A DNA stretch of 64,000 nucleotides from Candidatus Poribacteria bacterium (lineage in GTDB: Bacteria > Poribacteria > WGA-4E > WGA-3G): contig JAJEDN010000078.1 in assembly GCA_022821495.1 (NCBI GenBank), forward strand, positions 30,612 through 94,611, read 5' to 3'. This document shows, piece after piece, positions 10,634 through 64,000 of this stretch; positions within the stretch are counted from its first letter, which is position 1, and every line of letters begins with the position of its first letter. The position numbers and the translations under genes are program-made. Under the pieces are notes generated by a model. The model had not been told where the DNA came from. It saw only the letters and a list, made by a program, of their open reading frames with translations, and did not search any database.

Positions 10634-11710
10634 ATGGAAAACACAAAAACGAAACGTTTGAAATATCCAGTAATTGATTGCGATATCCATAACTCTGTTC
10701 CACCCGGCGGGTTGTCCCCTTATCTATCCCAGCGGTGGCAGGATCATCACACGACTTTCGGTCTCCGTGGTCAAATCGGCGGATACTATCCGCGAGCACT
10801 CCTGAATGCTGCACGCCACGACGCATGGCCCCCCTCAGGTCTCTCTCCCGGTGCAGATTTGGGGTTCATGCAGGAGCAACTACTGGATGCGTGGGATATT
10901 GAATACGGTGTGCTTAACCCGTTAATCCCTGTCGGTGAACAGCTGAATCTTGAGTATAGTGATGCGCTCGCAAGTGCCGTCAACGACTGGCAGGTTGCCG
11001 ATTGGGTAGAACCTGAACCCCGTCTACGCGCCTCCATTGTCCTTCCGTATGAAAACGGGGATCTCGCCGCTGCGGAAATCCATCGGTGCGGTCCAAATCC
11101 AGCGTTTGTTCAGATCTTGCTCCTCGCGCGCACGCGGGAACCCCTTGGCAACCGAAAATATTGGAAAATCTACGAGGCAGCCGTTGAATACGATCTACCC
11201 ATCGGTATCCATTTCGGCGGCAATCAGGGACCCATTACAGGTGCCGGGTGGCCCTCCTACTACATAGAGGACCACGGCGGTATGCCGCAAGCCTTCCACA
11301 CCCAAGTTATTAGTTATGTGTGTGAAGGGATATTTGACCGTTTTCCGACGCTCAAGGTTGTGCTAATTGAGGGCGGCTTTGCATGGCTCCCACCGCTCAT
11401 CTGGCGACTGGATGCCACTTGGGAAAAACTCCGATCCGAAATCCCGGACCTCAAACGGAAACCCTCGGAATACATCCGCGACCATTTCTGGCTCAGCACA
11501 CAACCGATGGAAGAACCACCGAAACGTGAGTATTTCGAGCAGCTGCTTGAACAGATGGACATGAACGACAAACTCATGTTCGCAACGGATTACCCACACT
11601 GGGATTTTGATGCCCCTGACCGTGCGCTTCCGAGTTTCCTCGCACCCGATCTGCGTAAAAAAATCTTATCAGAAAACGCCCGTGAACTTTACGCATTCGA
11701 TAAACTGTAG
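10634..11710 (+). CDS. Amidohydrolase-2 family metal-dependent hydrolase, paralog 2
   Basis: VIDCDIHNSVP, ATDYPHWDFD. Clearly paralogous to 9212..10333. Confidence 0.75.
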   Translation: MENTKTKRLKYPVIDCDIHNSVPPGGLSPYLSQRWQDHHTTFGLRGQIGGYYPRALLNAARHDAWPPSGLSPGADLGFMQEQLLDAWDIEYGVLNPLIPVGEQLNLEYSDALASAVNDWQVADWVEPEPRLRASIVLPYENGDLAAAEIHRCGPNPAFVQILLLARTREPLGNRKYWKIYEAAVEYDLPIGIHFGGNQGPITGAGWPSYYIEDHGGMPQAFHTQVISYVCEGIFDRFPTLKVVLIEGGFAWLPPLIWRLDATWEKLRSEIPDLKRKPSEYIRDHFWLSTQPMEEPPKREYFEQLLEQMDMNDKLMFATDYPHWDFDAPDRALPSFLAPDLRKKILSENARELYAFDKL

Positions 11711-11724
11711 TAGCGATTTCCCTT

Positions 11725-11760
11725 GTAGCATAGTTTCCTGTTAGGCTGTGCCTACTATCA
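11725..11760. repeat. R5 dispersed element (ttgtagcatag...ctgttaggctgtgcct), second copy at 36547-36590
   Basis: Shared ttgtagcatag and ctgttag[gc]ctgtgcct strings. Both copies lie downstream of genes and contain a GGCTGT..AGCC-type hairpin. Confidence 0.5.
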
Positions 11761-11791
11761 ACCAATAACCAACAACCAATAACCAATAACC
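11761..11791. repeat. Heptamer tandem repeat (CCAAYAA)x4 upstream of the Rieske gene
   Basis: accaataaccaacaaccaataaccaataacc. Confidence 0.8.
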
Positions 11792-11794
11792 TAA

Positions 11795-12232
11795 ATGCCC
11801 AAATACGTTGTAGCAACCCCAGACGAAATACCTCCCGGTGAACGCAAGATCGTCGAAATCGGCGGACGTTCCATCGGTATCTTCAACATTGACGGTGAAT
11901 ACTTTGCCATCCGTAACAGTTGTCCGCACCAAGGCGGACCGCTCTGCAAAGGCATCGTCACCGGATTCTTAGCGTCACCGACACCAGGCACCTATCACTA
12001 CACCCGCAAAGGCGAAATCCTCCGATGCCCGTGGCACAGTTGGGAATTCGACATCAAAACCGGGCAATCGTGGTGGAGTCCTGCCCAACGTCGCGTCAGA
12101 AAATACGAAGTCCAAGTCGAAAGCGGCGAGGAGATTGAAGCATCCAGTGCCGAACGCGAAAAAGGACCCTACGTCGCCGACACCTTCCCAGTCACCATCG
12201 AACAACAATACGTCGTCATCGAAGTCGATTAG
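11795..12232 (+). CDS. Rieske [2Fe-2S] domain protein
   Basis: CPHQGGPL (CxH) and CPWHSWEF (CxxH) boxes ~20 aa apart. Confidence 0.8.
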   Translation: MPKYVVATPDEIPPGERKIVEIGGRSIGIFNIDGEYFAIRNSCPHQGGPLCKGIVTGFLASPTPGTYHYTRKGEILRCPWHSWEFDIKTGQSWWSPAQRRVRKYEVQVESGEEIEASSAEREKGPYVADTFPVTIEQQYVVIEVD

Positions 12233-12269
12233 CACATAGTTCTCAGAACTTATGCACAACGCACCCATA

Positions 12270-12322
12270 CTTCCAATCCTCCAATCTTCCAGTCTTCCAC
12301 CCTTCCAATCTCTAATCCTCCG
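12270..12322. repeat. Degenerate 7-8 bp tandem repeat (CTTCCAAT-like) in convergent spacer, overlapping the PhyH stop
   Basis: cttccaatcctccaatcttccagtcttccacccttccaatctctaatcc. Confidence 0.6.
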
Positions 12323-13112
12323 CTTCGCCACCAATTAATTTCTCCTGATCCCCCGGAGAATAAAAATACGACCCCGGTTTCCAATCCCCGATATCCCCGA
12401 TCAATCGCCGTTGCCGCGGCGTACACCGCGCCATAAGTTCAGGCGAAGCCTTCTCATAATCAAACGGACGAAAACACTGATGGCTATAGCAATAGATAAG
12501 CGTCTTCCGAGCCTGTTCCGAACGATTCGCGACAACACCGTGCCAGAGTGCATGCGGAAAAACAGCAGCATCCCCCGCCTTCACGCACAACTGCACCGCT
12601 TCCGGGATATAGGGACCGTCCTTAACACCCGTCTCAGGAAAAGTACGGTTATGACTCCCTGGCACAATCGTGAAGTTACCGCTATCGGGTTTCTCAAGAT
12701 CCGTCAAAAAATAATGGATTTTCACTTGCAAAGGCGAACTTGATCGACTGACTCGAATCGTCCGCATTGCCTGCCCACCATCCGTATGCAGATACCCTTG
12801 ATCTTTCGGATTCGGCGGACGGACAATCACCTCCGACATACTCAGTTGGATAAAGTCCCCAATCAACTCACGCACAATCGGGAACGTCACCGGATGATCC
12901 ATCAGGTCGACGAAAATATCGTTATCTTCCATCACATTCCGCCGATCTAAAACAGAATCCGCAGTGACATTCTCACCTGTCCGAAACTCAGCATCCATCT
13001 CATCAACTGTCGCCGTCAGTGTTTCCACCTCTTCAGGAGAAAGCACCCCTCTCAGCACAATGTACCCCTCCGTCTTCCACTGCTTACGCTGCTCCTTCGT
13101 TAAGATTCCCAT
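12312..13112 (-). CDS. Phytanoyl-CoA dioxygenase (PhyH) family Fe(II)/2-oxoglutarate oxygenase
   Basis: N-terminal EGYIVLRGVLSPEEV, HTDGGQ (HxD), C-terminal HALWHGVVANRS. Confidence 0.8.
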   Translation of the reverse strand: MGILTKEQRKQWKTEGYIVLRGVLSPEEVETLTATVDEMDAEFRTGENVTADSVLDRRNVMEDNDIFVDLMDHPVTFPIVRELIGDFIQLSMSEVIVRPPNPKDQGYLHTDGGQAMRTIRVSRSSSPLQVKIHYFLTDLEKPDSGNFTIVPGSHNRTFPETGVKDGPYIPEAVQLCVKAGDAAVFPHALWHGVVANRSEQARKTLIYCYSHQCFRPFDYEKASPELMARCTPRQRRLIGDIGDWKPGSYFYSPGDQEKLIGGEAED

Positions 13113-13411
13113 CTGTACATCACCTCGCGCATCTGGGCATGTTTATTGGTGAAGTTTTACCTCCGATTTTATTACACACTAAATTAAATCAGAAATCAAT
13201 TCGTGTCAAGGAAAATAGCTGCTGGTCTCTATTTTTACCTTGGCTTTTTTCTGCCAATATTGCTATACTATTCTCAGTATTGTTGGGTAGTGATTGTTAG
13301 TTGTCTCACTTGAGGGAGTTCCTACCATCGCCTAACATCGGAAAGCAATGCTTATGAACAATGCAAATCCATAAGGAGAAAACAATGTTTATCCGATTAA
13401 GGAGTAAATCC

Positions 13412-14913: not shown

Positions 14914-16422
14914 ATGCAACCCAATTCACAACTAAAGGAAAGCCATAAACTCACCGACGCGCAGATGCGTGATTTTATTGTGAATGGATATATCACGATA
15001 AAAACGGAGCTGCCGCGCAGTGTTCATGAGACGATCTATCGCAAAACGCAGGAACTCACGGCAAAAGAAGGAAATTTAGGGAACAACATCTTGCCGCGTG
15101 TCCCCGAACTGCAAGCCGTTTTTGAGGATCCCACTGTCCGTGGCGCGTTCACGAGCATTTTGGGCGAGAATTACGTCATGCATTCGCATCGACATCCGCA
15201 TCAAAACCGTCCACACAGTGATGGACAGGGATTCCATAAGGATAGTTACTGGGGCTATCAGAAGGTGCGTCACCATTGCCCGCGCTGGGCGATGGCGTTC
15301 TACTACCCACAAGATTCGCCGCTCGAAATCGGTCCCTCAGCAGTCTTACCGGGCACGCAGTACTACAACACCCGAATCACCGAAGGGAACGATGGCGAAT
15401 TGGCACTCAGCGGCGAGGCTGGCACGATAGCTGTCATTCACTTCGACCTCTGGCACCGCGCCATGGCAAACCTGACCGATAAGACACGCTACATGATGAA
15501 GTTCCAATTCATCCGATTGGACGCACCAGAAGCGCCGGAGTGGAATGTGACGGATCCGCATTGGCAATCTGAAGACATCAATCCAGCAACACCCGCGCAT
15601 CAGGGAACCTGGCGACACGTCTGGAACTGGATGGCAGGTGAATCTAACGGGCGTTCGACATCGCCGACCAACGGAAACCTGACGAAGCACATTGAATCAT
15701 TAAGTGACCATGATCCATCTATCCGTTCCCACGCCGCTGATGAACTCGGCACGTTAGGTGAATCCGCTGCAGAGGCGGTGCCGCATCTCATCAAAGCGTT
15801 GCATGATGATTATGAACCCGTCTGTTTGAACGCCGCGTACGCACTCGGCGCAATTGGCGAACCGTCTGTTTCGCAACTGATTGAGGTGCTGAGTGATGAA
15901 AACGGAGCGACGCGACGGATGGCTGCCTACGCACTCGCTGCAGTCGGTACGCCAGCAGTCTCTGCTTTGAGTGAAGCGTTACAGCACACAGTGGATGCTG
16001 TGCGTGTTGAAGCCGCTTACGCTTTGGCACAAATAGGGGAGGCAGCGGAGCCTGCCATTCCAGCGTTGATGGAACGGACGAAAGATGATAATGTAGAAGT
16101 CCGCCGTTATCTGCCTGAAGCTTTTGGCAGCATCGGTCCCGCTGCAGCGCCCGCTGTGCCTGATCTAATTGATAGCATCGAGAACGACGATGATAAACAA
16201 GTGCGCTTTGAATCCGCATTGGCATTAGCACAAATTGGACCCGCTGCAAATGATGCTGTTCCGGTTCTGGCGAACGCGCTGAGAGATGAAGATCGTTATG
16301 TCCGGGATAATTCGATCCATGCACTAAAACGCATTGGCACCCGCGAAGCGGAATCGGCACTTTTTGATTATCTGCTCATGGCACGCTGGTGCCCGATCAC
16401 CCATCGCGAAAGCACACATTAA
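14914..16422 (+). CDS. PhyH-family dioxygenase domain fused to C-terminal PBS-lyase-type HEAT repeats
   Basis: N-terminal half with HRHPHQNRPHSDGQGFHKD and WHRAMAN (oxygenase-like). C-terminal half has ~7 repeats of the AA.ALG.IG pattern (E-Z type HEAT). Confidence 0.7.
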   Translation: MQPNSQLKESHKLTDAQMRDFIVNGYITIKTELPRSVHETIYRKTQELTAKEGNLGNNILPRVPELQAVFEDPTVRGAFTSILGENYVMHSHRHPHQNRPHSDGQGFHKDSYWGYQKVRHHCPRWAMAFYYPQDSPLEIGPSAVLPGTQYYNTRITEGNDGELALSGEAGTIAVIHFDLWHRAMANLTDKTRYMMKFQFIRLDAPEAPEWNVTDPHWQSEDINPATPAHQGTWRHVWNWMAGESNGRSTSPTNGNLTKHIESLSDHDPSIRSHAADELGTLGESAAEAVPHLIKALHDDYEPVCLNAAYALGAIGEPSVSQLIEVLSDENGATRRMAAYALAAVGTPAVSALSEALQHTVDAVRVEAAYALAQIGEAAEPAIPALMERTKDDNVEVRRYLPEAFGSIGPAAAPAVPDLIDSIENDDDKQVRFESALALAQIGPAANDAVPVLANALRDEDRYVRDNSIHALKRIGTREAESALFDYLLMARWCPITHRESTH

Positions 16423-16450
16423 CAAACTCGCATATTCGCCACCATTGTTG

Positions 16451-16475
16451 CAGGCGGGGTTTGTAACCCCGCCTG
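16451..16475 (+). terminator. Perfect hairpin caggcggggtttgtaaccccgcctg downstream of the PhyH-HEAT gene
   Basis: 11-bp stem with tgt loop, followed by tatcaatatttcat. Same GGGGTTTGTAACCCC core as 5386, 23323 and 30185. Confidence 0.5.
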
Positions 16476-16512
16476 TATCAATATTTCATAAGACATCACA
16501 TTAGGACCCAAT

Positions 16513-17664
16513 ATGAACTATCAACTTCTCATTAAAAACGGAACCGTCATCGATCCCGCACAGGGCATCCATGCCCGCAAAGATGTGGCATTCGCGAACG
16601 GACGCGTCTCAGCAATCAGTGATGAGATACCGACATCCGATGCGCGCGAAGTGCTAAATGCTGAAGGGTGTTTCGTTACACCGGGACTAATTGACTTACA
16701 CGTCCATGTTTTCTACGGCGTAAGCCACTTTGGGATTGAACCCGATCCTACCTGCTTGGCACGTGGCGCGACGACGGTCGTGGATGCCGGGTCAGCAGGC
16801 GCGGACACGTTCCCGGGGTTCCGTAAATACGTCATTGATGTCAGCGATACGCGCATCCTCGCACAATTAAATATCTCGTCGCAAGGTATGCTGACACAGG
16901 AGATCGGGGAGTTGGAAAATCCTGACTATGCAGACATCGGGAAGGCGTGTCAGATGATAGAGCAACATCGCGATATCATCTTGGGAGTCAAGGTACGATT
17001 GACGCGTGAGAGCATTGTTGGTGAGAGGGCACAGATGTTGCCGTTGCACAGCGCGCGTGAAGCCGCCGATGCTGCCGGACTCCCCATAATGGTGCATCCA
17101 CAAGACGCTTGGTGTGAATCTATTGACGATATATTGGCATTTATGGGTGAACGCGATATTTTAACCCACTGCTTCCACGATATGGAATGCGGCATCTTAG
17201 ATGAGCACGGCAAAGTTCGGGATGCTGTCCACGCAGCGATTGAACGCGGTGTTATCTTCGATGTAGGACACGGCGCGGGTTCCTTCAGCTGGGATGTCGT
17301 CCAGAAAGCGATGGTGCAAGGCGTTGAACCGACGACAATCTCTTCTGATCTGCATGTCTACAACGTTAACGGTCCCGTCTACGATCTCGTGAATGTCGTC
17401 AACAAATTCCTATATCTTGGTATGTCGCTTGACGATGCGCTTGCTAAGGTCACAAGTATCCCTGCCGAAACTATATTAATGCCCGGACAGGTCGGGACAT
17501 TAGCAGTTGATGCGTGGGGGGATGCAGTGATTTTTGAACTTCGCGAAGGTGAATTCCCGTTGATAGATGCGCGGGATCAAGTGAGGGTAGGCAAACAGAA
17601 ATTGGAACCGATTGCCGTTGTAAAAGGTGGACAAGTCTATCGCCAACACCACACACACGGCTAA
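16513..17664 (+). CDS. Amidohydrolase-1 superfamily protein (dihydroorotase / D-aminoacylase-like)
   Basis: VTPGLIDLHVHVF metal-binding motif, VVDAGSAG, IMVHPQD, FDVGHGAG. Confidence 0.75.
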   Translation: MNYQLLIKNGTVIDPAQGIHARKDVAFANGRVSAISDEIPTSDAREVLNAEGCFVTPGLIDLHVHVFYGVSHFGIEPDPTCLARGATTVVDAGSAGADTFPGFRKYVIDVSDTRILAQLNISSQGMLTQEIGELENPDYADIGKACQMIEQHRDIILGVKVRLTRESIVGERAQMLPLHSAREAADAAGLPIMVHPQDAWCESIDDILAFMGERDILTHCFHDMECGILDEHGKVRDAVHAAIERGVIFDVGHGAGSFSWDVVQKAMVQGVEPTTISSDLHVYNVNGPVYDLVNVVNKFLYLGMSLDDALAKVTSIPAETILMPGQVGTLAVDAWGDAVIFELREGEFPLIDARDQVRVGKQKLEPIAVVKGGQVYRQHHTHG

Positions 17665-52578: not shown

Positions 52579-52784
52579 TATCCCTTTGTTCTTATCGAAC
52601 CCACCACTGAAAATGTTGCAAGGATTTGGGAAGATACGGTATAATGTCAAAGAGGTAGAAGTTTGAAAATAGCGCGAGAGATGGAGGCAAAAGTTGAAAT
52701 TCATATTAAGCCTTCGGACAAAACAGTCAATCACCAGCGAGTTTTTGTTACGTAACGATGTTTGTTTTCCGGAGAAAGACGCTA

Positions 52785-53558
52785 ATGCTACTCAAGGATC
52801 GTGTTTGCATTGTAACCGGTGGAAGTTCCGGTATCGGACGTGGCATAGCACTTGAATTCGCCCGTGAGGGCGCGTGTGTTGCTGTCGTAGATAAACGAGA
52901 AACACCCCTTCGCGGTAGATATCACGAAACCGAGGTCACAACCCCAACCGTTGTAGAGATCAAAAAACTTGGCGCGCAGGGTATATTCCTTCAAACCGAT
53001 GTCGCCGATGACTCTCAGATTGCGAACGCAATTCAGCAAACCGTCGAACACTTCGGTGGACTTGATATTCTCGTCAATAACGCCGGTATCCACATCCCTG
53101 GGGGTTCGCAAGAAATCTCGATTGCCGATTGGGATAGTGTCGTTGGCGTTAACCTCCGCGGCGTTTTCGTCGCTACGAAACTCGCAATCCCACATCTAAA
53201 GCAGTCAAAATTTGGACGAATTATCCAAATTGCCTCTGTTCACGCCTATGGCGGCGGAGCAGGACCTGCGTATGCACCCGCGAAAGCTGCTGTCGTTAAC
53301 ATGGTACGAGATACTGCCTTAGAAATCGGTCAATTCGGCATAACCGTCAACGCCATTTGCCCGGGTTATATTGAAACGGCAATTCAAGACTACCTCACCC
53401 CCGAACAGATTGAAGAAGCATTGGAAAAAACCGCCCTACCGCGTTTCGGTCTACCGAGAGACATCGGACGTGCCGCTGTTTTCCTCGCTTCCGACGACGC
53501 AGAGTGGGTCACCGGTGCGTCCCTACTCGTTGACGGTGGCTTCGCCGCAGGCGTATAG
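52785..53558 (+). CDS. SDR family oxidoreductase
   Basis: TGGSSGIGRGIA, NNAG, Y..AK catalytic pair (YAPAKAA). Confidence 0.85.
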   Translation: MLLKDRVCIVTGGSSGIGRGIALEFAREGACVAVVDKRETPLRGRYHETEVTTPTVVEIKKLGAQGIFLQTDVADDSQIANAIQQTVEHFGGLDILVNNAGIHIPGGSQEISIADWDSVVGVNLRGVFVATKLAIPHLKQSKFGRIIQIASVHAYGGGAGPAYAPAKAAVVNMVRDTALEIGQFGITVNAICPGYIETAIQDYLTPEQIEEALEKTALPRFGLPRDIGRAAVFLASDDAEWVTGASLLVDGGFAAGV

Positions 53559-53600: not shown

Positions 53601-54398
53601 ATGCAAACAAATCCATGGGGAACAATCCGTTTTACAGATAAAGTCGCGTTAATAACAGGAGGTGCCTCTGGCATCGGTAGAGCAACAGCGAACCGCCTCG
53701 CAGCCGAAGGCGCGCATGTTATCATCGCCGACAACAACGCCGAAATGGCGCGCACGACAGTCGCTAAAATCGAGGAGACAGGCGGTAAAGCGACCTACAT
53801 AGAAGTGGATCTTGCTGATGACGAAAGCGTCACCACCGCCGCGCAAACTGTCGCCGAAAAGTTTTCTGCACTCCACGTGCTCGTCAATAACGCTGCTATC
53901 TTGAGAAGCGGTAAAATTGAAGACGGCGCGTGGATACCCAATTGGGAACCCGAAACCGCAATCGGGCTCCGAGGTTGGGTCCTGATTACGCAGCATCTTT
54001 TACCGCTTATGAAAAAAGAGGGTGCCGCGATTGTTAACCTCTCATCGGAAGGCGGGTTTCTCGGTAGACCCGGACAGTGGATCTACGATGCCATTAAAGC
54101 CGGACTCGTCTCTCTCACCAAAACGATGGCGCAGGAATTTGTCGAATACGGTATTCGGGTTAACGCCATTGCACCGGGTTGGATCGTTACAGAGATGCAC
54201 TTCGGTAAAGCAACCGACCCTGAGGCTCAGAAGAAGGCGTTAGAGGAATTAACGATCTCCTCGTGTATCATGAAACGTCTTGCCAAACCTGAAGAGGTCG
54301 CCGCCGCTATCGCTTTTCTCCTCAGTGACGATGCCTCCTACATTACAGGTCAGACTTTACACGTTGATGGTGGTCGTTGGGGAATGTCTGTCGGTTGA
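53601..54398 (+). CDS. SDR family oxidoreductase
   Basis: TGGASGIGRATA, NNAA, Y..IK (YDAIKAG). Confidence 0.85.
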   Translation: MQTNPWGTIRFTDKVALITGGASGIGRATANRLAAEGAHVIIADNNAEMARTTVAKIEETGGKATYIEVDLADDESVTTAAQTVAEKFSALHVLVNNAAILRSGKIEDGAWIPNWEPETAIGLRGWVLITQHLLPLMKKEGAAIVNLSSEGGFLGRPGQWIYDAIKAGLVSLTKTMAQEFVEYGIRVNAIAPGWIVTEMHFGKATDPEAQKKALEELTISSCIMKRLAKPEEVAAAIAFLLSDDASYITGQTLHVDGGRWGMSVG

Positions 54399-54426
54399 TT
54401 TTCCTTTAATCTCGTCTATTTACACT

Positions 54427-54972
54427 ATGCCAAACAAAACCCACACCACAGCGGTTGTTCTGATCCCGCCAGAAAACGTACAACCCCCCATCCAAGCCAT
54501 CCGCCGGATTCATGATCGCAACTTCGAGCGTTGGATGCCCCATATAACGCTGCTCTACCCATTCGCAGCGCGTCGTGATTTCACAGAGATTACGCCCGCG
54601 CTCACAAAAGCCGCACAACAGATAACATCCTTTTCCATTGAACTCACACGTTTTAACGCTTTCAAACATCGCAAATCTTGTACGATGTTTCTTGTTCCAG
54701 AACCCGAAGACGAAATCGGTCAGTTACACAGCACGCTATTACAACACCTTCCAGACTACGACGACACCGCACAATTTGCCGGTGGGTTCCATCCTCACCT
54801 CTCCGTCGGACAATTCCAGCATCGATCTCTGCAGACCGAGCAGCAGCGTCTCCAAACCGAATGGCAGCCGATAGCGTGTGAAATGAAATCGCTCAGTCTT
54901 ATCTACCGCTCACCTCAAACAGATGACAGGTTCGTCATAGCGGAACAATTTCCGTTTCAGAAAAGGAACTAA
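54427..54972 (+). CDS. 2H phosphoesterase superfamily protein (LigT / 2'-5' RNA ligase-like)
   Basis: Two HxT/Sx motifs: HITLLYPF and HLSVGQF. Confidence 0.65.
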   Translation: MPNKTHTTAVVLIPPENVQPPIQAIRRIHDRNFERWMPHITLLYPFAARRDFTEITPALTKAAQQITSFSIELTRFNAFKHRKSCTMFLVPEPEDEIGQLHSTLLQHLPDYDDTAQFAGGFHPHLSVGQFQHRSLQTEQQRLQTEWQPIACEMKSLSLIYRSPQTDDRFVIAEQFPFQKRN

Positions 54973-54974
54973 CA

Positions 54975-56147
54975 ATGAAAACAAATATTTTCCTAACCCT
55001 AATCGCAATCTTAATTATATCTCTTGCAGGATGCGAACGCATACAACAAATCGTTGCCCGTGATGCACCCACATCGGACACGACATCTACCATCAAAATC
55101 GGCGTGATCCAACCCTCGGGACTTGCCCCCAACTTCACCAGAGGCGCGGAACTCGCCAGAACCCAAATTAACGATGCTGGCGGTCTACTCGGCATGCAAG
55201 TCGAATTTATTGTCATGGACAATCAAGGCGATCGCGAATTCCCAAACGCAGCCGAAAGCGTCCGTATTGCTAAAGTTCTCATTGAAAAGATAAACGTTGT
55301 CGCAATCTTAGGTCCCCTACTCTCAACGAATTCCATGCAAGTTGGACCCGTTGTTTCTGAGCTTCGGCGACCCATAATTACCGGTTCGTCCGGTGAGAAG
55401 GTAACCTCGACAGGCGAATTCGTCTTTATTACGGTTGTTCCGTCCTCAGTTCAAGGTATGACAACGGCACAATTCGCATTAGATCCCACCGAACTGAACG
55501 CCAAAACCGCCGCGACAATCCGTCAAGCTGGAGATGTGTACTCCGGTGCTGTCGCTGACGCTTTTGAGGCGAATTTTCAGGAACTCGGTGGAAAACTCGT
55601 CGCAAGTGAAGTCTATCAACACGGCGATAGAGATTTTGCCGCGCAGTTGACAAAAATTAAAGCCGCAGCCCCGGATGTTTTCTTAATAGCCGGTTTTAAC
55701 CCAGAGATCCCTTTATTGGCAGCACAGGCGAGGGATATAGGGATTACGGCAACCTTTATCGGTACCAATGGTTGGGATGAGTCTGACAAACTTCTTGGCA
55801 CTTTAGATGACAACGCACCTCTCGAAGGAGCTTACTTCACCAGAGGTTTCAATGTCGAGTCCGTCAGTGCTCCTGCCTTTGTTGCGGCGTACACAGCGAT
55901 GTATATCGAACCGCCGGATGGTCCCGCCGCATGGGGCTACGATGCGATGTCGCTACTCGCACTCGCCATCAAAAACGCTGGAACGCTTGATCCTGATGCC
56001 ATTCGCGATACCTTGGCAAACACAACCGACTACCAAGGCGCGACCGCTATCTCCCATTTTGATGAGAATCGCCATCCCATCAAATACCATGAACTTTACA
56101 CAATCCGCAACGGGCAGATAGAACTCTACAAGGTTGTAAGTCCATAA
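54975..56147 (+). CDS. ABC-transporter substrate-binding lipoprotein (LivJ/K branched-chain amino-acid-binding family), paralog 1
   Basis: Lipobox LAGCE. Type-I periplasmic binding fold signatures. Confidence 0.75.
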   Translation: MKTNIFLTLIAILIISLAGCERIQQIVARDAPTSDTTSTIKIGVIQPSGLAPNFTRGAELARTQINDAGGLLGMQVEFIVMDNQGDREFPNAAESVRIAKVLIEKINVVAILGPLLSTNSMQVGPVVSELRRPIITGSSGEKVTSTGEFVFITVVPSSVQGMTTAQFALDPTELNAKTAATIRQAGDVYSGAVADAFEANFQELGGKLVASEVYQHGDRDFAAQLTKIKAAAPDVFLIAGFNPEIPLLAAQARDIGITATFIGTNGWDESDKLLGTLDDNAPLEGAYFTRGFNVESVSAPAFVAAYTAMYIEPPDGPAAWGYDAMSLLALAIKNAGTLDPDAIRDTLANTTDYQGATAISHFDENRHPIKYHELYTIRNGQIELYKVVSP

Positions 56148-56173: not shown

Positions 56174-57346
56174 GTGAAACTAAAAATTTTCTTAACCCTC
56201 ATTACAATTATAGTTATATCCTTTACCGGATGCGAACGCGTAAAACAGGTGATTGCACCTGATGCTCCCGCTCCCGATGCCGTTTCTACTGTTAAAATCG
56301 GTGTGATTCAACCCTCGGGATACTACACCGGGTTTGCCCAAGGTGCCGAACTCGCTCGCACCCAAATCAATGCGCGCGGTGGTGTGCTCGGCAAGCAAAT
56401 TGAATTTATCGTCAGGGATAACCAAGGAACGCGTTCCGTCCCGGATGCAGCCGAAAGTGTTCGTATTGCAAAAACACTCATTGAGCAGGAGGAGGTTGTT
56501 GCAATTCTCGGTCCCATTTTCTCTAACAATTCCATAGAGGTCGGACCTGTTGTTCAGCAACTTCAGCGTCCGATCATTCCCGGCTCCGCTGGCGATCATG
56601 TGACCGCTGCAGGGGATTTTGTCTTTCTCGTCGTCCCTACGACATCAGCCCATGGCGCGGTAATAGCACAATTCGCAAGCGATCCGTCCGAACTCGGCGC
56701 AACAACCGCCGCGACGATCCGTCAAACTGAGAGTGCTTACACAGAGAGCCTAACCCAAGCGTTTGAAGAGAATTTTCGGGAACTCGGTGGCAAAATCGTT
56801 GCCAGTGAAGTTTATCAAGTTGGCGATAACACCTTTGATGCACAACTGACAAACATCAAAGCCGCAGCACCCGATGTGATATATATTGCAGGTATTATTC
56901 CAGATATTCACTTCGTGATGGCGCGAGCCAGAGAAATCGGTATTCAAGCCACTTTTCTTGGGCCCGGAAGTTGGGATGAGGTTCAGAAGCTTTTCAGTAC
57001 CTTAAATGATAACGCACCGTTAGAGGGGGCTTATTTTACCGCAGATTTTAGTCCAGAGGTACCGAGTGCCGAACCCTTTGTTCAAGCTTATACGGCGCTG
57101 TCTATGACACCGCCAGATAGCGCAGCTGCTTCAGGTTATGATGCCATGTTACTCTTAGCGACTGCAATTGAAGAGGCGCAGACGCTCAATCCTGCTGCCG
57201 TTCGCGATGCCCTTTCAAATATCACCAACCACAAAGGCGCGACGTTTATTTCCCATTACAGTGTCAATCGCCACCCGATTAAAAGCGTTGTCATTAACAC
57301 AATCCGCAATGGGCAGATCGAACTCTACAAGGTTGTGAACCCATAA
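56174..57346 (+). CDS. ABC-transporter substrate-binding lipoprotein (LivJ/K family), paralog 2
   Basis: aggagg RBS then GTG. Lipobox FTGCE. ~55% identical to paralog 1 by eye. Confidence 0.75.
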
Positions 57347-57392: not shown

Positions 57393-58958
57393 ATGAATAC
57401 CAATCTCGCCGATATCGAAAATAGGCTCTGGAGTGCCGCCGATGAACTCAGAGCCAATTCACGCCTTAAGGCGTCCGAATACTCAACACCTGTCCTCGGG
57501 CTTATCTTTTTACGATACGCCGATCACAAGTTTACACAGGCTGAACAAGACATCAGCAGCGAAGCCGATCCAAACAGCCGCAGGCAGCCCGACCTGAGAA
57601 TGGAATGTCAAGCCCGCGGTGTACTTTATCTGCCAGCGCATTCGCGGTTTCAATACATACTCAGTTTGCCAGAAGGTGAAAATATCGGGCAAGCTATCAC
57701 TGATGCTATGAAGGCAATAGAGGCGGAAAACTCACAAATAGAGGGTGTCCTTCCCAAAACTTACAATCGACTTGAAAAGAACACGCTCCTCGAACTCCTC
57801 CGTATCATGGAACAGATCCCTATGGACATTGAAGGAGATGCTTTCGGGAAGGTTTATGAGTACTTCCTCGGCAATTTCGCCATGAGCGAGGGGCAACGCG
57901 GCGGTGAATTCTTCACACCAACCTCGCTCGTGAAACTCATCGTTGAGATTATCCAACCCTTTCACGGACGCATCCTTGATCCTGCCTGCGGATCCGGTGG
58001 AATGTTTGTCCAGAGTGCAGCGTTCATTAGCAACCACAAGAAAAATGGCAACCCCGGAGACATCAGCATTTACGGCGTTGAACGCGTCGTTGAAACGATC
58101 AGGCTGTGCAAAATGAATCTCGCCGTTCATGCCCTTGAAGGCGATATTAAACAAGCCAGCAGTTACTACGAGGATCCGCACAACTGCCTCGACAGATTTG
58201 ATTTCGTCATGGCAAATCCACCTTTCAACGTCGATCGCGTGGACAGAGAACGGATCAAAGACGATCCGCGATTCCCGTTCGGCATGCCCCGTGTCGATAA
58301 TGCCAACTACCTTTGGATACAATTGTTCTATAGTTCGCTTTCCGAATCCGGGCGTGCAGGTTTCGTCATGGCGAACTCCGCCGCCGATGCCCGTGCCTCT
58401 GAACTCGACATCCGCCGCCAGATTATCGAATCCGGCGCAGTCGATGTCATCGTCAGCATCGCCTCGAATTTCTTTTATACCGTTACCTTACCCTGTACCC
58501 TCTGGTTCTTCGATAAGCCCAAACGGAACAGCGATAGACACGATAAAGTCTTGTTCATTGACGCACGCCATCTCTATCAACAGGTGAGCCGCGCCCATCG
58601 GGAATTCACACCCGGACAACTTGAATTCCTTGCAAACATCGTCAGACTTTATCGCGGAGAAGCACCAGAGAACCAACACGACAGTGCAGATTTCCTCACC
58701 TCAAAATTCCCCGATACAGAATACATTGATGTCCCTGGACTTTGCAAGGTCGCCACGATTGCCGAGATTGAGACACAAGGCTGGAGTCTGAACCCCGGAC
58801 GCTATGTCGGCGTTGACGAACAGACAACCGACGATTTCGACTTCACCGAACGATTTACGCAGCTCAACGAGGAGTTAGCAGTCCTAAACGCCGAAGCACA
58901 TCAACTCGAAGAACGCATCGCCGAGAACGTTGCAAAGATTTTGGAGGATACGGTATAA
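57393..58958 (+). CDS. hsdM: Type I restriction-modification system methyltransferase subunit HsdM (N6-adenine)
   Basis: N-terminal HsdM_N (LWSAADELR). Motif [12 protein letters not shown]. Motif IV ANPPFN. Confidence 0.9.
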
Positions 58959-58976: not shown

Positions 58977-59303
58977 ATGAGTGAAGAAGTCAAAATTGAG
59001 GAAAGTTCTGGAAATGTGTTTCTGGACATCGGTTTCTCCAAAGAAGAGGCGGAATATCACCAGTTAAGGGTAGACTTGGCGATTAAAATTTATCGACTTT
59101 TTGAGGAACTAAAACTGACTCCGGCGAAAGCAAAGGCAGACTTTGGAATCAATCCATCTGATGTGTCCCGAATACAGAACGGAGATTTTAGTTTTACTAT
59201 GGACAAACTCTTTACAATCCTGAGCCAGTTGAACTGCAATGTTGAAATCCGCATTACACTTTCGGAAGATACCCAGGGGCACCTGCGACTCGTTACAACT
59301 TAG
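58977..59303 (+). CDS. XRE-family HTH protein (HigA-antitoxin-like / possible controller) inserted in the R-M operon
   Basis: SGNVFLDIGF..EEAEYHQLRVDLAIKIYRLFEELKLTPAKAKADFGINPSDVSRIQNG...FTMDKLFTILSQLNCNVEIRI matches the HigA/XRE antitoxin pattern. No upstream toxin ORF. Confidence 0.65.
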   Translation: MSEEVKIEESSGNVFLDIGFSKEEAEYHQLRVDLAIKIYRLFEELKLTPAKAKADFGINPSDVSRIQNGDFSFTMDKLFTILSQLNCNVEIRITLSEDTQGHLRLVTT

Positions 59304-59450: not shown

Positions 59451-59711
59451 TTACCTTTTTTTGTACGGATATTTCGTCCCTTTACGGCGGTTCTCCTTCG
59501 TTTGAAGTGCCTGAAGGTTGCGAGGATTGTCGGTTCCCCCCTTTGACTTAGGGCGTTTATGATCTACTTGCCAACTTTGTTTGCCCTCTTTACCATACGC
59601 AGGCTTGTAGATTTTATTGCCGCTTGAGTCACGTCGCCAGAGATTCGGGTTTTTACCTCGAATTGGTTTGGCTTTTTTCCAAGCGATTTCTTTTTGTTTT
59701 CGCGTTGCCAT
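59451..59711 (-). CDS. Small basic HNH nuclease-domain protein (86 aa)
   Basis: WQVDHKRPKSKGGTDNPRNLQALQTKENRRKG HNH motif. aagaggtg RBS. Own TTGACA, 17 nt spacer, TAATAT promoter. Confidence 0.7.
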   Translation of the reverse strand: MATRKQKEIAWKKAKPIRGKNPNLWRRDSSGNKIYKPAYGKEGKQSWQVDHKRPKSKGGTDNPRNLQALQTKENRRKGTKYPYKKR

Positions 59712-60158: not shown

Positions 60159-60212
60159 ACACTAAAAAATCTGGCAATTCTCTGATGCGTATGCTATAAT
60201 ATCGTAGAGAAA
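60159..60212 (+). promoter_or_regulatory. Promoter-like 50-bp repeat copy 2 (extended -10 TGCTATAAT) upstream of the 380-aa unknown gene
   Basis: aaaaaatctggcaattctctgatgcgtatgctataatatcgtagag. Gene start at 60281 with aaaagga RBS. Confidence 0.5.
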
Positions 60213-60280
60213 ACAACCGGAAAAATAGGGTGCTCACTTACCATCCAGCCCGAACAACAGTTGATCAAAAGGATTCCATA

Positions 60281-61423
60281 ATGTCTGACGAAACGAAACC
60301 GGATCTACCCACGACAACTGAAGATGAAACAAACACAGATCTTGATGTTGTTCCCAAGGATACAGCGGGAAACATGCTTGATGCTGTCACCGATTTTATA
60401 TCAAAATTGGATCTTTCTACTTGGTTAGGGCGAAACGCGTCTAAGGCTTTTGGCAAATTATGTTCTGCGCCAAGTAAGTGGTATAACGCGTATTTTGAAG
60501 GGAAAGCTGCTGAAACTCGTGCAGAATCAGAGGCACGAGTCAAAATTATAGAGGTAGGGACTGATCAAATTATCCAACAAATGAAAGTCCCTCCAGAATA
60601 TGCTCAGATAGCACTAAACAAGAACATGGAAAAGATAATTGGAGAGCAAATCAACCTTGATAAAATCTCCGCTATTGCTGCAAGTGAACTTAATAACGGC
60701 GAATCGGATAACCCAGCAAATCAAGGCACAAATCAACCTAATGAAGCACAATCTGATAATTCGACAAATCAGGATGCAAACGGTGGTGAGGAAAAGACGA
60801 TAAGTGATGTCTGGCTTAACATTTTTGAGACGGAAGCGCGCCCACAGAGTACTGAGGAGGGGCAGATCCTTTTCGGTCGCATCTTGGCTGGAGAAATTAA
60901 AAATCCAGGATCGTATTCAACGCGAACATTAAAAACCCTCGGTGAATTGGATCAAAATATTGCAGCCTTGTTTAAAAAATTGTGTTCGGTATGCATAGTT
61001 CTTAATAATCCGATTGATGACGCCCTTATTGATATTAGGATTCCCTCACTAGGTGGCAATCCCGGAAGGAATGTCCTCAGAAAATACGGTTTGCCTTTTA
61101 GTAAACTCAATACATTAAATGAATATGGGCTTGTTATTTCAGATTATAATTCTGGTGTTGATTATCAAGTGTCTATAGTGGATAAAAATCATCGAGTCCT
61201 TGCTCCATTTCTGCACCAAGGACAATATTGGGCTTTACAGTCTACATTAGAGCGAGAGCACGATGAAGAGTTTAGAATATGGGGAGTCGCACTTTCTCAG
61301 GTTGGCCGCGAATTGTTTCAAATAGTCGAGCAAGATTCCATACCGGAATACACTGAAGATCTAAAGAAATTCCTTATGGGGCAGAACCTACAAATGATTG
61401 AAGTTCAATCTCAATCATTCTAA
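60281..61423 (+). CDS. Hypothetical protein, possibly DUF2806-like, inserted between hsdM and hsdS
   Basis: 380 aa. Two alpha-rich halves separated by a low-complexity linker (NQGTNQPNEAQSDNSTNQDANGGEE). Motif ILAGEIKNPGSYSTRTL recalls the DUF2806 signature (from memory, unverified). Confidence 0.6.
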   Translation: MSDETKPDLPTTTEDETNTDLDVVPKDTAGNMLDAVTDFISKLDLSTWLGRNASKAFGKLCSAPSKWYNAYFEGKAAETRAESEARVKIIEVGTDQIIQQMKVPPEYAQIALNKNMEKIIGEQINLDKISAIAASELNNGESDNPANQGTNQPNEAQSDNSTNQDANGGEEKTISDVWLNIFETEARPQSTEEGQILFGRILAGEIKNPGSYSTRTLKTLGELDQNIAALFKKLCSVCIVLNNPIDDALIDIRIPSLGGNPGRNVLRKYGLPFSKLNTLNEYGLVISDYNSGVDYQVSIVDKNHRVLAPFLHQGQYWALQSTLEREHDEEFRIWGVALSQVGRELFQIVEQDSIPEYTEDLKKFLMGQNLQMIEVQSQSF

Positions 61424-61449: not shown

Positions 61450-62619
61450 ATGCCAAACAGCGAAGTTCTAATTGGGGATTACATTCAAACCCTAAGAAAA
61501 AAACATAAAATAAAAAAATCTGAGTATTTATCCAGCGGTAATATTCCCGTGGTTGACCAAGGTCAAGACTTTATTGCTGGTTACATAGATGATACCAAGC
61601 GAGCTTATGATGGGCAACTTCCTGTCATTGTCTTCGGCGACCACACCTGCACTTTGAAATATGTAGATTTCCCCTTTGCAGTAGGCGCAGATGGTACACA
61701 GCTGATACATCCTACAAAGGACTTTGACATCCGTTACTTCTATTATGCATTACAAAATTTGCCTTTGGAACATTTCGGCTATCAAAGGCATTTTAAGTAT
61801 CTAAAAACGTCAAAAGTTTTTTGCCCACCGATGCACATCCAGCGCAAAATCGCCGCCATCCTCTCCACCTACGATAACCTCATTGAAAACAACACCCGCC
61901 GCATCAAAATCCTTGAAGACATGGCACAAACCCTCTACCAAGAATGGTTCGTCCATTTCCGCTTCCCCGGACATGAGAACGTCCAGATGGTAGAATCGGA
62001 ATTAGGACTGATACCACAGGAATGGAAGGTAGTTCCTGCAAGTGAAGCCATGTTTGTAAATCCAAAAACTTCTGTTCCACGCGATACCATAAAACCATTT
62101 GTCCCAATGAAGTCAGCGACAGAAAATTCAATGCTAATCACCGAAATCGAAGAAAGAACGGGAAATAGTGGGGCGAAGTTTAAAAATGGAGACACGCTAT
62201 TTGCGCGTATCACACCATGTCTTGAAAACGGTAGAACGGGTTTTGTTCAGTTTCTGTCTAATAATGATGAGATCGCTTTTGGATCTACCGAATTTATCGT
62301 CCTCAGGTCCAAAACGTTGAATCCATATTTTGTCTATCTTTTGGCACAGACTCGCGATTTTAGGGAGAATGCTATCAAGAGTATGACAGGTGCAACAGGC
62401 AGACAGCGTGTTCTCAATGAATGTTTCGATGATTATTTTTTACCAAATCCTGATCAAGATGTACTTTGTCAATTTGAATCTACCATTGCCCCTCTGTTCA
62501 GGAAAGTTCAGAGTCTTTCGGAAAGAAATGAGAATCTCCGCCAAACCCGAGACTTCCTTCTCCCTAAACTCATCTCCGGCGAGACTGATGTATCTAAACT
62601 TGACATTAACACCAATTGA
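61450..62619 (+). CDS. hsdS: Type I restriction-modification system specificity subunit HsdS (two TRDs)
   Basis: N-terminal LIGDYIQTLRKKHKIK...IPVVDQGQDFIAGYIDD. Central conserved repeat ILEDMAQTLYQEWFVHFRFPGHE. C-terminal RQTRDFLLPKLISGE. Confidence 0.85.
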   Translation: MPNSEVLIGDYIQTLRKKHKIKKSEYLSSGNIPVVDQGQDFIAGYIDDTKRAYDGQLPVIVFGDHTCTLKYVDFPFAVGADGTQLIHPTKDFDIRYFYYALQNLPLEHFGYQRHFKYLKTSKVFCPPMHIQRKIAAILSTYDNLIENNTRRIKILEDMAQTLYQEWFVHFRFPGHENVQMVESELGLIPQEWKVVPASEAMFVNPKTSVPRDTIKPFVPMKSATENSMLITEIEERTGNSGAKFKNGDTLFARITPCLENGRTGFVQFLSNNDEIAFGSTEFIVLRSKTLNPYFVYLLAQTRDFRENAIKSMTGATGRQRVLNECFDDYFLPNPDQDVLCQFESTIAPLFRKVQSLSERNENLRQTRDFLLPKLISGETDVSKLDINTN

Positions 62620-62633
62620 AACATAGAGGTAAA

Positions 62634-64000
62634 TGATGCTTTCAGGAGTTCTAACAGAAGTTTACAAAGACATTCGTGGAGCAATTAAGAAGAAACGCGA
62701 AGAGTCAGAGGCAGAAAAGGCAGAAATTGAAAATGCCGCCCACCAGTATGAGAAGAAATACAGAGAACACCACGGCCAAGTCAAAGTCTTCTGTGTAGGT
62801 ATGCGTGAACCGATCCCTCTTGATGATGTCTATGTCGCCGTTCAATTCTTAGACAATCAAAGCACATCAAAGTACGGAACCCCTGAAGATGTTGAAAAGG
62901 CATTCCGACAAAGATCTCCAAACCGCTTTATTTCAAGTGCCGATGAGCGAAAAGATGGAACGGTGGTTGCTAACGAAAAACAGTATCTGATGGTACTCGG
63001 CGGGCCCGGTGTCGGTAAATCAACCTTCCTTCGTAAGGTTGGACTTGAAGCATTAAAAGGGGAGAACGGAAACTTTGAACACGCATGTATCCCTGTCTTC
63101 CTTGAACTAAACAGGTTTACTGAAACTCAGATTGAGATTGAAACCGTAATTGCTGACAAATTTAAGACCTACCACTATCCATACCTGGATAAAATGGTTA
63201 GAAGTGCATTAGATTCGGGGAAATTCCTGATACTTTTCGACGGACTTGACGAAGTCCCTGCTGCGAATGTTGACAATGTAGTGCGTAAAATTGGAGATTT
63301 CGTCGATCGATATAGCCAAAACCGCTTTATCGCTTCATGTCGGATAGCGGCATATAAAGGAGGGTTCACGCGGTTTACAGAAGTCGAGATGGCGGAATTT
63401 GACGATGCACAGATTAAGGTGTATATCAAAAATTGGTTTGATTCAACACCTCACCAATACCGGTATCAACTTGACAAGGATATGAAAACTGCCCAAAATT
63501 GCTGGCAGGCGTTAAACTCAATAGGACATCACGCGACCAAGGAGTTGGCGCGGAATCCGTTATTACTCACGCTTCTATGTCTGGTTTACGACAACTCGCA
63601 AAACTTCCCGCGAAATCGGGCAGATCTCTATGAAAAAGCACTCAGCATATTTCTTGAGGAATGGGCGGCTGAAAAGCGGATCAGCCGAGAAGAATCAATC
63701 AGTCAGTACTTGGACATTGCGGCTGAAAAACGGATGCTTTCTGAAATCGCAGCGAAGAATTTCGAGGAAAACCGCCTCTTTTTCAGTAAGGATGAACTCA
63801 TCGATCAGATTCAAAAATTCGGTGACGGGAATGCCAATACACCACCAGAGTTCAATGCCCCCAAGATCTTAGAAACAATTCTTGTTGATCAGGGACTTTT
63901 CATTGAGCAAGTTAGCGGCTCCTACTCTTTCTCTCATTTGACCTTTCAAGAGTATTTGACAGCGAATTATATCGTAAGGGATACGAGGTCAATTCAAGGG
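62634..64000 (+). CDS. NACHT-domain STAND NTPase (partial, continues beyond window end). This ORF is absent from the supplied ORF track
   Basis: agagg RBS then ATGATG. Walker A LMVLGGPGVGKSTFLRKV. Walker B FLILFDGLDEV. NACHT-type NPLLLTLLCLVY. No stop before 64000. Confidence 0.75.

Follow-up and report, generated by a model that had tools for sequence, protein, structure and literature searches.

A gene of the DUF2806 family (Pfam PF10987) was found nested inside a Type I restriction-modification (R-M) operon of a Candidatus Poribacteria bacterium, on a stretch of 64,000 nucleotides (nt) here called the window (assembly GCA_022821495.1, contig JAJEDN010000078.1, positions 30,612 to 94,611). 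The gene lies between hsdM and hsdS and encodes a protein of 380 amino acids (aa). It appears rather probable that this protein is an autonomous abortive-infection protein of the Belisama/Abi-alpha type, carried as a fixed and co-expressed passenger of the Poribacteria Type I R-M island. An initial annotation of the window had put the gene forward as a candidate novel effector embedded in the R-M operon, a defence or abortive-infection component rather than a metabolic gene. A role in defence or abortive infection is still the best-supported reading, while the descriptions "novel" and "R-M component" were unsupported or overstated.

The protein belongs to a family with a validated anti-phage member

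The window protein passed the Pfam DUF2806 model with 80.5 bits (gathering score, 24.5; E value, 2.1e−22), with aa 171 to 362 aligned to profile positions 35 to 221, and its C-terminal half alone scored 76.6 bits. The motif that the initial annotation had linked to DUF2806-family proteins, ILAGEIKNPGSYSTRTL at aa 201 to 217, is the block with the highest conservation in the family, and all of the 120+ listed homologues carry PF10987. TIGR03899, a 250-aa NCBIfam hypothetical equivalog of DUF2806 type, shares the DUF2806 core with the window protein (aa 173 to 366 align to its profile positions 57 to 245). TIGR03899 proteins are shorter, and the window protein is not a member, as it scored 59.7 bits where the cutoff is 155.65.

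The family had been described as one of unknown function and the protein as a candidate novel effector. The former no longer holds and the latter is overstated, as DUF2806 already defines Belisama, a validated single-gene anti-phage system of Vibrio cholerae and one of 16 systems found in its superintegron cassettes (bioRxiv 10.1101/2024.07.02.601686). Belisama protects at low multiplicity of infection, with strong and unrecoverable lysis at high multiplicity, and is toxic on over-induction (bioRxiv 10.1101/2024.07.02.601686); it is detected by DefenseFinder (PMC12724379). The family is also distantly related to that of Abi-alpha (Pfam Abi_alpha, PF14337, formerly DUF4393), the product of EF2833 in prophage 6 of Enterococcus faecalis V583. 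Infected cells carrying Abi-alpha lyse prematurely, and its authors remarked on a similarity to PF10987 and speculated that it acts on holin timing or interferes with the proton-motive force (PMC6356687). The profile scores of p58 from the Sinorhizobium phage phi3LM21 reproduce this family link, as the protein bridges the two profiles (DUF2806, 108.9 bits; Abi_alpha, 26.8 bits, E value 6e−6, cutoff 29). A tblastn search from this phage intermediate toward the Gram-positive Abi-alpha found only the intermediate itself and Pkon1.

Belisama and the window protein share the Pfam domain PF10987. Each consists of one protein in which no enzymatic domain can be recognised, from a family that has spread horizontally and occurs on mobile elements; by analogy, abortive infection with lysis would be the expected phenotype of the window protein. 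They differ in context, as Belisama is an integron cassette in Pseudomonadota whereas the window gene is chromosomal, within a Poribacteria Type I operon and apparently cotranscribed with hsdS. The window protein also has an N-terminal helical extension of ∼95 aa and a low-complexity loop. Abi-alpha is likewise encoded by a single gene with a premature-lysis phenotype; unlike the window gene product, it is 272 aa long, prophage-borne, from Gram-positive bacteria and without R-M linkage.

The gene is nested in a Type I R-M operon

The open reading frame (ORF) called by the initial annotation was confirmed. A longer version beginning with GTG at position 60230 is possible; ATG was accepted as the true start because the N-terminus MSDETKPDLP is conserved in 46 DUF2806 homologues, with M1 invariant, and because the ribosome-binding site is conserved as well (AAAGGA-N7-ATG in nearly all of 13 aligned homologous loci). 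A ribosome-binding site and a promoter-like element of the gene's own had been claimed, and both were recovered (Table 1). The candidate promoter matches the consensus at 10 of 12 positions and falls within the segment 60159 to 60212 that had been proposed for it; a TGnTATAATA extended −10 sequence stands at the same place in 5 of the 13 homologous loci (the window, L004, L005, L007, and L040; L numbers denote the loci compared). Promoter-like sites were not enriched over the whole region (11 observed versus 7.3 ± 2.7 in shuffles).

As had been stated, the gene lies directly upstream of hsdS. The distance from its stop codon to hsdS is 26 nt, and a terminator scan found no terminator-like site between the two. 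The gene after hsdS had been taken for hsdR; Pfam searches identified it as a NACHT NTPase gene instead. On the source contig (ENA ERZ23491296, scaffold_162; L001), it is followed, beyond the end of the window, by genes for an ABC ATPase, a DUF4276 protein and a 172-aa protein (p172) and then by hsdR. The ∼1,050-aa downstream protein is HsdR, as it contains HSDR_N, SWI2_SNF2, and T1RH-like_C domains and matches PADLOC REase_I at 639 bits. The full operon order is hsdM, a variable slot, the DUF2806 gene, hsdS, other genes, and hsdR. The window gene is genuinely nested in a Type I operon, as had been claimed, and shares this feature with guards of the PrrC/RloC type.

The occurrence of defence genes inside Type I operons is well established. 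A guard lodged in such a locus has a precedent in PrrC (PMC12707154), TgvAB (PMC11411939) and DarTG2 (PMC12255303) are nested in Type I operons, and Payne et al. (2024) surveyed such operons for candidates in a guilt-by-embedding approach (bioRxiv 10.1101/2024.01.29.577857). DUF2806 and PF10987 are absent from the text and 11 supplements of that survey (bioRxiv 10.1101/2024.01.29.577857), and its candidate models, included in PADLOC v2, do not match the window protein. With the anticodon nucleases PrrC and RloC, and with DarTG2 and TgvAB, the window gene shares the architecture of a defence-type gene other than an R-M gene that is nested among hsd genes and expressed with them, and for all of these a second line of defence is plausible. 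The window protein differs from all of these in that it resembles them in neither sequence nor fold and has no ABC ATPase or nuclease domain, and DUF2806 is not restricted to R-M loci. Neither Pfam nor PADLOC, nor the fold comparison, matched the ABC ATPase N-domain or the anticodon nuclease C-domain of PrrC/RloC. Homology to an hsd subunit was also absent from the window protein (no N6_Mtase, Methylase_S, HSDR_N, or ResIII match and no PADLOC R-M match).

Predicted structure and absence of an enzyme fold

A first AlphaFold2 model, built from 46 close homologues, was poor in the N-terminal half. A second, from 98 sequences down to 43% identity, reached a mean pLDDT (predicted local distance difference test) score of 78.4 and a predicted template modelling score of 0.74, with pLDDT above 90 over aa 171 to 380. 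In this model, an acidic disordered tail (aa 1 to 25) precedes helices at aa 26 to 41, 48 to 60, 63 to 71, 76 to 100, and 105 to 143, the last of 39 residues. Only ∼95 N-terminal residues lie outside the Pfam DUF2806 model; aa 96 to 143 are already part of the DUF2806 domain, and aa 22 to 95 form a variable module that reassorts among homologues. The N-terminal half alone matched no Pfam family at an E value of ≤10. Across phyla, conservation is still present from about residue 50, reaching to Alphaproteobacteria and a Paracoccus phage.

The initial annotation had described two alpha-helical halves joined by an Asn/Gln/Asp-rich linker. The N-terminal half is helical as described; the C-terminal half is not all-helical, as aa 237 to 375 were modeled as an alpha/beta subdomain. 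The composition of the linker was also borne out (81% N/Q/S/D/E/T/G over aa 141 to 172), its place at a junction of two domains was not. This segment is disordered in the model (pLDDT below 50 at aa 142 to 169) and is 10 to 25 aa shorter or absent in homologues from outside Poribacteria. Full-length relatives, found in Binatia and on a cyanobacterial plasmid, match the DUF2806 profile from its position 9 or 10 onward, and this match begins near residue 100. Because of this profile start and the shorter loop outside Poribacteria, the segment is best described as a lineage-specific expansion inside the DUF2806 domain. The conserved core motifs that follow (Table 1) are carried on four helices (aa 176 to 236; pLDDT above 90), and the beta-rich subdomain after them (aa 237 to 340) is rich in indels in alignments.

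The initial annotation had seen no enzymatic motif, and nothing beyond DUF2806 itself was found in Pfam, NCBIfam, PADLOC, or PHROGs; no confident match to a known enzyme family was obtained. Among 27 cross-phylum sequences, only L202, A203, E205, P209, and A228 are invariant, E205 being the only polar residue, and as judged from this alignment the set is no catalytic constellation. A Kyte-Doolittle scan for a membrane-spanning effector found none (maximum 19-residue score, 1.45). Searches of PDB sequences with the window protein and with a cross-phylum profile gave no matches, nor did they retrieve PDB 3H35, an entry to which Lossouarn et al. refer. A BFVD fold search gave one significant match, an unnamed 229-aa phage protein (E value, 6.8e−10; target-normalised TM score, 0.74) of the same length as phi3LM21 p58.

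An accessory or regulatory Type I factor with no part in abortive infection, such as a winged-helix-like controller of hsdS expression, of assembly, or of restriction alleviation, would fit the likely cotranscription with hsdS and the helix-helix-helix-hairpin order predicted at aa 192 to 255, for which the winged-helix similarity was at noise level. No significant match to a helix-turn-helix (HTH) family or to a winged-helix fold (MarR-like or C-protein-like), and no basic DNA-binding surface, was found for the window protein. The protein is acidic (57 D/E versus 35 K/R), which is unusual for a DNA binder, and the regulator niche is already filled by a separate HTH_37 gene. Nor would a dedicated R-M regulator be expected to be hypervariable beside a 97%-identical hsdM, or to be widespread without R-M, and this explanation is very unlikely. 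The acidity also raised the idea of a DNA mimic, which was set aside, as the charge sits in the disordered tail and the loop and its density is far below that of Ocr or ArdA.

Linkage to hsdS in Poribacteria and solitary homologues elsewhere

DUF2806 homologues gave 677 matches in an indexed database, and an exhaustive profile search of cluster representatives (50% identity) returned 6,904 at an E value of ≤1e−3, 3,339 at 1e−10, and 422 at 1e−30. Nearly all are standalone proteins of 320 to 380 aa with PF10987 as sole domain; PADLOC and PHROGs searches with distant homologues gave no matches. A locus scan with one genome per species yielded 54 loci, comprising 26 labelled Candidatus Poribacteria, 2 labelled uncultured bacterium (L011 and L020), and 26 from other phyla, in which neighbors were called by phmmer with the window's own proteins as probes. 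In 24 of the 54 loci hsdM lies upstream on the same strand, and in 23 hsdS lies downstream. The gap to hsdS is ≤60 nt, or the genes overlap, in 16 of these 23 loci and is ≤200 nt in 21. The distance from hsdM ranges from 378 to 5,928 nt, and the slot between the two can hold HTH_37, HNH, transposase, DUF433, or Fic genes, and even genes for short-chain dehydrogenases/reductases (SDR), LigT, and periplasmic binding proteins (PBP).

R-M linkage was seen in 23 of the 26 Poribacteria-labelled loci; three Poribacteria copies are without R-M (L002, L018, and L024), and in L059 the DUF2806 gene is intact with no hsdS called. The Poribacteria locus is syntenic, with a 1393-aa rotamase-domain protein, two SDRs, LigT, and a PBP, among which the hsd genes are interleaved in varying permutations. 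The DUF2806-hsdS pair stays together where hsdM is displaced by 5 kb (L003 and L005) and where the flanks are unrelated (Dus-DapF-DapA in L062). A housekeeping role, suggested by the syntenic SDR, LigT, and PBP genes, was considered and rejected, as the DUF2806 gene tracks hsdS and not those genes and recurs with other flanks.

Outside Poribacteria, embedding in an R-M locus was found in 1 of 26 species loci. This locus, from Binatia (L031), is on sequence grounds an independent case, as its HsdM is 46% identical to that of the window, and its DUF2806 protein, at 47%, is as close as many Poribacteria copies. In the other 25, from cyanobacteria, Terriglobia, and Proteobacteria among others, the probes detected no Type I genes, and the homologues (35 to 48% identity) are solitary, without R-M or a conserved partner. 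Pfam and PADLOC analysis of ±3 genes around these 25 copies identified mobile-element and defence neighbors (integrases, four; ParA, three; PIN, two; Uma2, two; HicB, Cas3/Cas8b, pAgo, DrmD, DruM, and WYL) and also ordinary metabolic genes; two more metagenomic homologues are solitary in metabolic surroundings. More distant family members also occur, without R-M, on 129 plasmids, mostly conjugative and IncX4-type, and at moron-like positions in two temperate phages. On an Acaryochloris plasmid, HicAB and transposases are the neighbors of the homologue, and a NACHT gene lies on the opposite strand ∼3 kb downstream.

The initial annotation had raised recurrence beside hsdS, hsdM, or NACHT genes as a sign of a defence function. 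Recurrence beside hsdM and hsdS was seen in Poribacteria and once in Binatia and in none of the other 25 non-Poribacteria loci; a NACHT gene accompanies several of the Poribacteria copies and, in one case, the cyanobacterial plasmid copy, and its presence is not general. Because homologues elsewhere lack R-M, as do the three Poribacteria copies mentioned above, the window gene is better regarded as an autonomous gene lodged in the operon than as a component of the R-M system, and it probably acts on its own rather than as an R-M subunit, although the window copy itself adjoins hsdS.

The linkage to hsdS could instead mark an R-M guard comparable to PrrC or PARIS, held by or monitoring HsdM2S or HsdR2M2S and killing the cell when an anti-restriction protein disables the enzyme, so that the adjacency would reflect physical partnership. 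That adjacency is very tight and persistent, with no terminator in between, and is retained despite displacement of hsdM; the Binatia locus represents an independent embedding beside a different Type I family, the window operon also carries a PARIS/HEC-01-like ABC ATPase module, and PrrC is a precedent in a Type I locus (PMC12707154). However, PrrC is almost exclusively embedded, and DUF2806 proteins outside Poribacteria, where one locus in 26 is embedded, are mostly solitary; Belisama works alone in a heterologous host. The Poribacteria copies without R-M and the intact gene of L059 likewise speak against dependence on an R-M partner, and the window protein has no similarity to PrrC, RloC, or AriA/B. 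Covariation with target recognition domain 1 (TRD1) of HsdS was weak for the N-terminal module (partial rho, 0.21; P ∼0.013, uncorrected for four tests), which would favor a guard, and weak to non-significant for the beta-rich subdomain (partial rho, 0.15; P ∼0.10), which would not, and coevolution of the DUF2806 protein with HsdS was not adopted. On balance, a guard of this type is unlikely.

Modular hypervariability of the DUF2806 gene

When the proteins of the same loci were compared with the window copy, DUF2806 had a median identity of 51%, HsdM of 80%, the N-terminus of HsdR of 68%, and HsdS of 39%. In L037, L008, and L004, HsdM is 96 to 97% identical to that of the window versus 49 to 61% for DUF2806. 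At the DNA level (BLASTN), the flanks in L037 are ∼90% identical, and within the DUF2806 gene only positions 60495 to 60987 align, at 72%; the 5′ part of the gene, its whole 3′ part, and the region of hsdS encoding TRD1 could not be aligned.

Mean pairwise identity is 0.38 in the beta-rich subdomain versus 0.65 in the core. The pairwise identities of the N-terminal module (aa 22 to 95), the core (aa 96 to 236), and the variable subdomain (aa 237 to 340) are mutually uncorrelated (Spearman coefficient, ∼0), and only the core tracks HsdM (rho, 0.44). Because of this lack of correlation, the gene is viewed as a mosaic of reassorting modules, a pattern that may be expected of an arms-race protein.

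Four of the 54 DUF2806 copies are split, one of them by an inserted element with transposase-like ORFs. The latter, a Poribacteria gene (L049, 10307 to 11450), is interrupted by an insertion of ∼1.1 kb, echoing the mcr-1/pap2 cassettes that disrupt the DUF2806 gene of IncX4 plasmids (PMC8221240).

Such disrupted copies bear on a further explanation, a selfish or addictive toxic passenger, or a non-defence gene, that sits in a recombination hotspot of the operon and has no anti-phage function. The unrelated cargo gathered in the slot between hsdM and the DUF2806 gene (HTH_37, HNH, transposase, Fic, DUF433, and SDR), the relatives on plasmids and phages, and the solitary copies amid metabolic genes could be accommodated in the same way. 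Nevertheless, the gene is intact and fixed in position in ∼25 species at 44 to 80% identity, and purifying selection on the core therefore follows. Most loci also lack an adjacent antitoxin-like partner, and anti-phage activity has been demonstrated for a family member, Belisama, which makes a passenger without such activity improbable.

Proposed mode of action

For an autonomous abortive-infection protein, the following course can be envisaged. Transcription would probably start at the gene's own putative promoter and include hsdS and the downstream genes, and the protein would thus always be produced along with the R-M system. Its activity would be held back as long as its fast-evolving surfaces, aa 22 to 95 and the beta-rich aa 237 to 340, have not recognised a phage component. 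The conserved core (aa 96 to 236, with the FGRILAGEI-PGSYS motif) and the long N-terminal helices may then execute a toxic activity of a non-enzymatic kind, so that the infected cell would lyse prematurely or die, as reported for Belisama and Abi-alpha. The protein would form a second line of defence behind restriction. Of these elements, the family membership, the anatomy, the lack of an enzyme fold, the conserved embedding and tight hsdS linkage, the hypervariability, and the occurrence apart from R-M elsewhere were observed here, whereas the defence activity of the window protein, the roles of its regions, and the lysis phenotype are inferred from family members.

Several observations weigh against this proposal. 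The defence role is transferred by analogy from Belisama, to which the likeness is that of the common domain, and the assignment of regions to sensor and effector is conjecture. The window protein falls below the TIGR03899 cutoff, neither it nor its halves matched Abi_alpha even at an E value of ≤10, and PADLOC v2, including its 145 embedded candidates, and PHROGs gave no match to it. Since the R-M-embedded cases come mostly from one phylum and a syntenic locus, they represent largely one inherited arrangement and not many independent ones. Several solitary homologues lie among metabolic genes with no defence neighbor, and the fast divergence could also reflect relaxed constraint.

Neighboring genes and cargo of the island

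The features of the window that bear on the gene are listed in Table 1.

Table 1. Features of the DUF2806 gene, its product, and the surrounding Type I R-M operon
Feature	Window position (nt)	Strand	Basis or description
hsdM, Type I methyltransferase	57393-58958	+	N6_Mtase and HsdM_N; PADLOC MTase_I, 737 bits
HTH_37 (XRE-type) small protein, variable slot between hsdM and DUF2806	58977-59303	+	Pfam PF13744, 53 bits
Small HNH protein, 86 aa, variable slot	59451-59711	−	Pfam HNH, 28.2 bits
Candidate promoter, CTGGCA-18 nt-TATAAT with TG extended −10, ∼80 nt 5′ of start	60171-60200	+	Consensus scan
Ribosome-binding site AAAAGGA, 7 nt before ATG	60267-60273	+	Read from sequence
DUF2806-family gene, 380 aa and stop codon	60281-61423	+	ORF list; Pfam PF10987
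N-terminal helical region, aa 26-143	60356-60709	+	Second AlphaFold2 model
N/Q/S/D-rich low-complexity loop, aa 141-172	60701-60796	+	Composition; AlphaFold2
Conserved DUF2806 core, aa 171-236	60791-60988	+	DxWLNxFExEA, then FGRILAGEIxxPGSYS, then LFKKLCS
Beta-rich subdomain, hypervariable, aa 237-340; candidate surface for recognition	60989-61300	+	Identity; indels
hsdS, Type I specificity subunit	61450-62619	+	Methylase_S; PADLOC Specificity_I, 261 bits
NACHT NTPase, runs off window end, 768 aa on source contig	62633-64000	+	Pfam NACHT, 45 bits

The HTH_37 gene was found in 14 of 55 loci searched (the 54 species loci and L001). In the window it follows hsdM; elsewhere it often lies immediately 5′ of the DUF2806 gene, with gaps of 12 to 100 nt (L006, L012, L022, L027, L033, and L059). 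Its product might control the R-M unit or might act as repressor or antitoxin for a toxic DUF2806 gene. The HNH gene, for a stand-alone protein, has its own promoter-like site (59776 to 59748) and occurs only in L001, L015, and L037; its product is weakly similar to the HNH domains of IscB and Cas9.

Immediately 5′ of hsdM, the window carries tandem Peripla_BP_6 paralogues of 390 aa each (54975 to 56147 and 56174 to 57346), a gene that is single-copy in other loci such as L003, L004, and L005. Two SDR genes (52758 to 53558 and 53601 to 54398) and a LigT/2H-phosphoesterase gene (∼54280 to 54972) travel with the Poribacteria Type I cluster. Their place in the window is upstream of hsdM, and in several other loci it is between hsdM and the DUF2806-hsdS pair; the association was seen in L003, L005, L059/L060, L064, and L066, even with differing outer flanks. 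These genes can be read either as chromosomal backbone or as cargo of the island.

Directly 3′ of hsdS, the NACHT/NCH2 STAND NTPase gene (L001, 12356 to 14662) recurs in Poribacteria loci L003, L004, L029, and L062; PADLOC gave no match for it. A NACHT gene is present in L056 as well (11076 to 13148). Further along L001, the ABC ATPase (14944 to 16182) matched PADLOC HEC-01A at 155 bits and AriA/AbiLi more weakly, the DUF4276 protein (16170 to 16910) gave a weak match to HEC-01B (27 bits), and the 172-aa protein (16944 to 17462), conserved in 17 loci, matched no family. HEC-01 showed no defence in the original assays, and the 172-aa third gene lies outside the published system. In other genomes the same Type I operon carries Fic, Transposase_31, DUF433/DUF5615 and UPF0175 (toxin-antitoxin-like), and Mrr-type nuclease genes (L031, 8685 to 9824; L062, 6169 to 6966 and 9531 to 9899; L064, 6087 to 6458 and 11605 to 11919; L059, 1714 to 2643), and the Type I operon behaves as a cargo-insertion hotspot at several junctions.

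Implications

It was already known that the DUF2806 family has a representative validated in defence and that defence genes can be nested in Type I operons. New, in the literature searched, are the embedding of a DUF2806 gene, the phylum-wide fixation of this gene immediately upstream of hsdS in Poribacteria, and its modular hypervariability. Guilt-by-embedding is thereby extended to a family missing from the published lists of embedded candidates and to a poorly studied phylum with sponge-associated and free-living members.

The DUF2806/Abi-alpha family is large, and at least two of its members kill phage-infected cells by a mechanism that is apparently non-enzymatic. A natural comparative set is provided by some 25 species that have this operon in common, with a core that is conserved and hypervariable modules that reassort independently. 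In this set, candidate sensing surfaces can be told apart from the executing core, which could help to design mutagenesis. If the linkage of the DUF2806 gene to hsdS is functional, Type I restriction would have a new guard in this protein. In a specific form of this idea, which we regard as quite unlikely, the core would dock on HsdS or HsdM2S, the variable modules would sense anti-restriction or other early phage proteins, and premature lysis would follow. Were this form to prove true, DUF2806 and hsdS would function together as a two-gene unit, conserved across Poribacteria, and the mechanism of the whole Belisama/Abi-alpha superfamily would become approachable for the first time.

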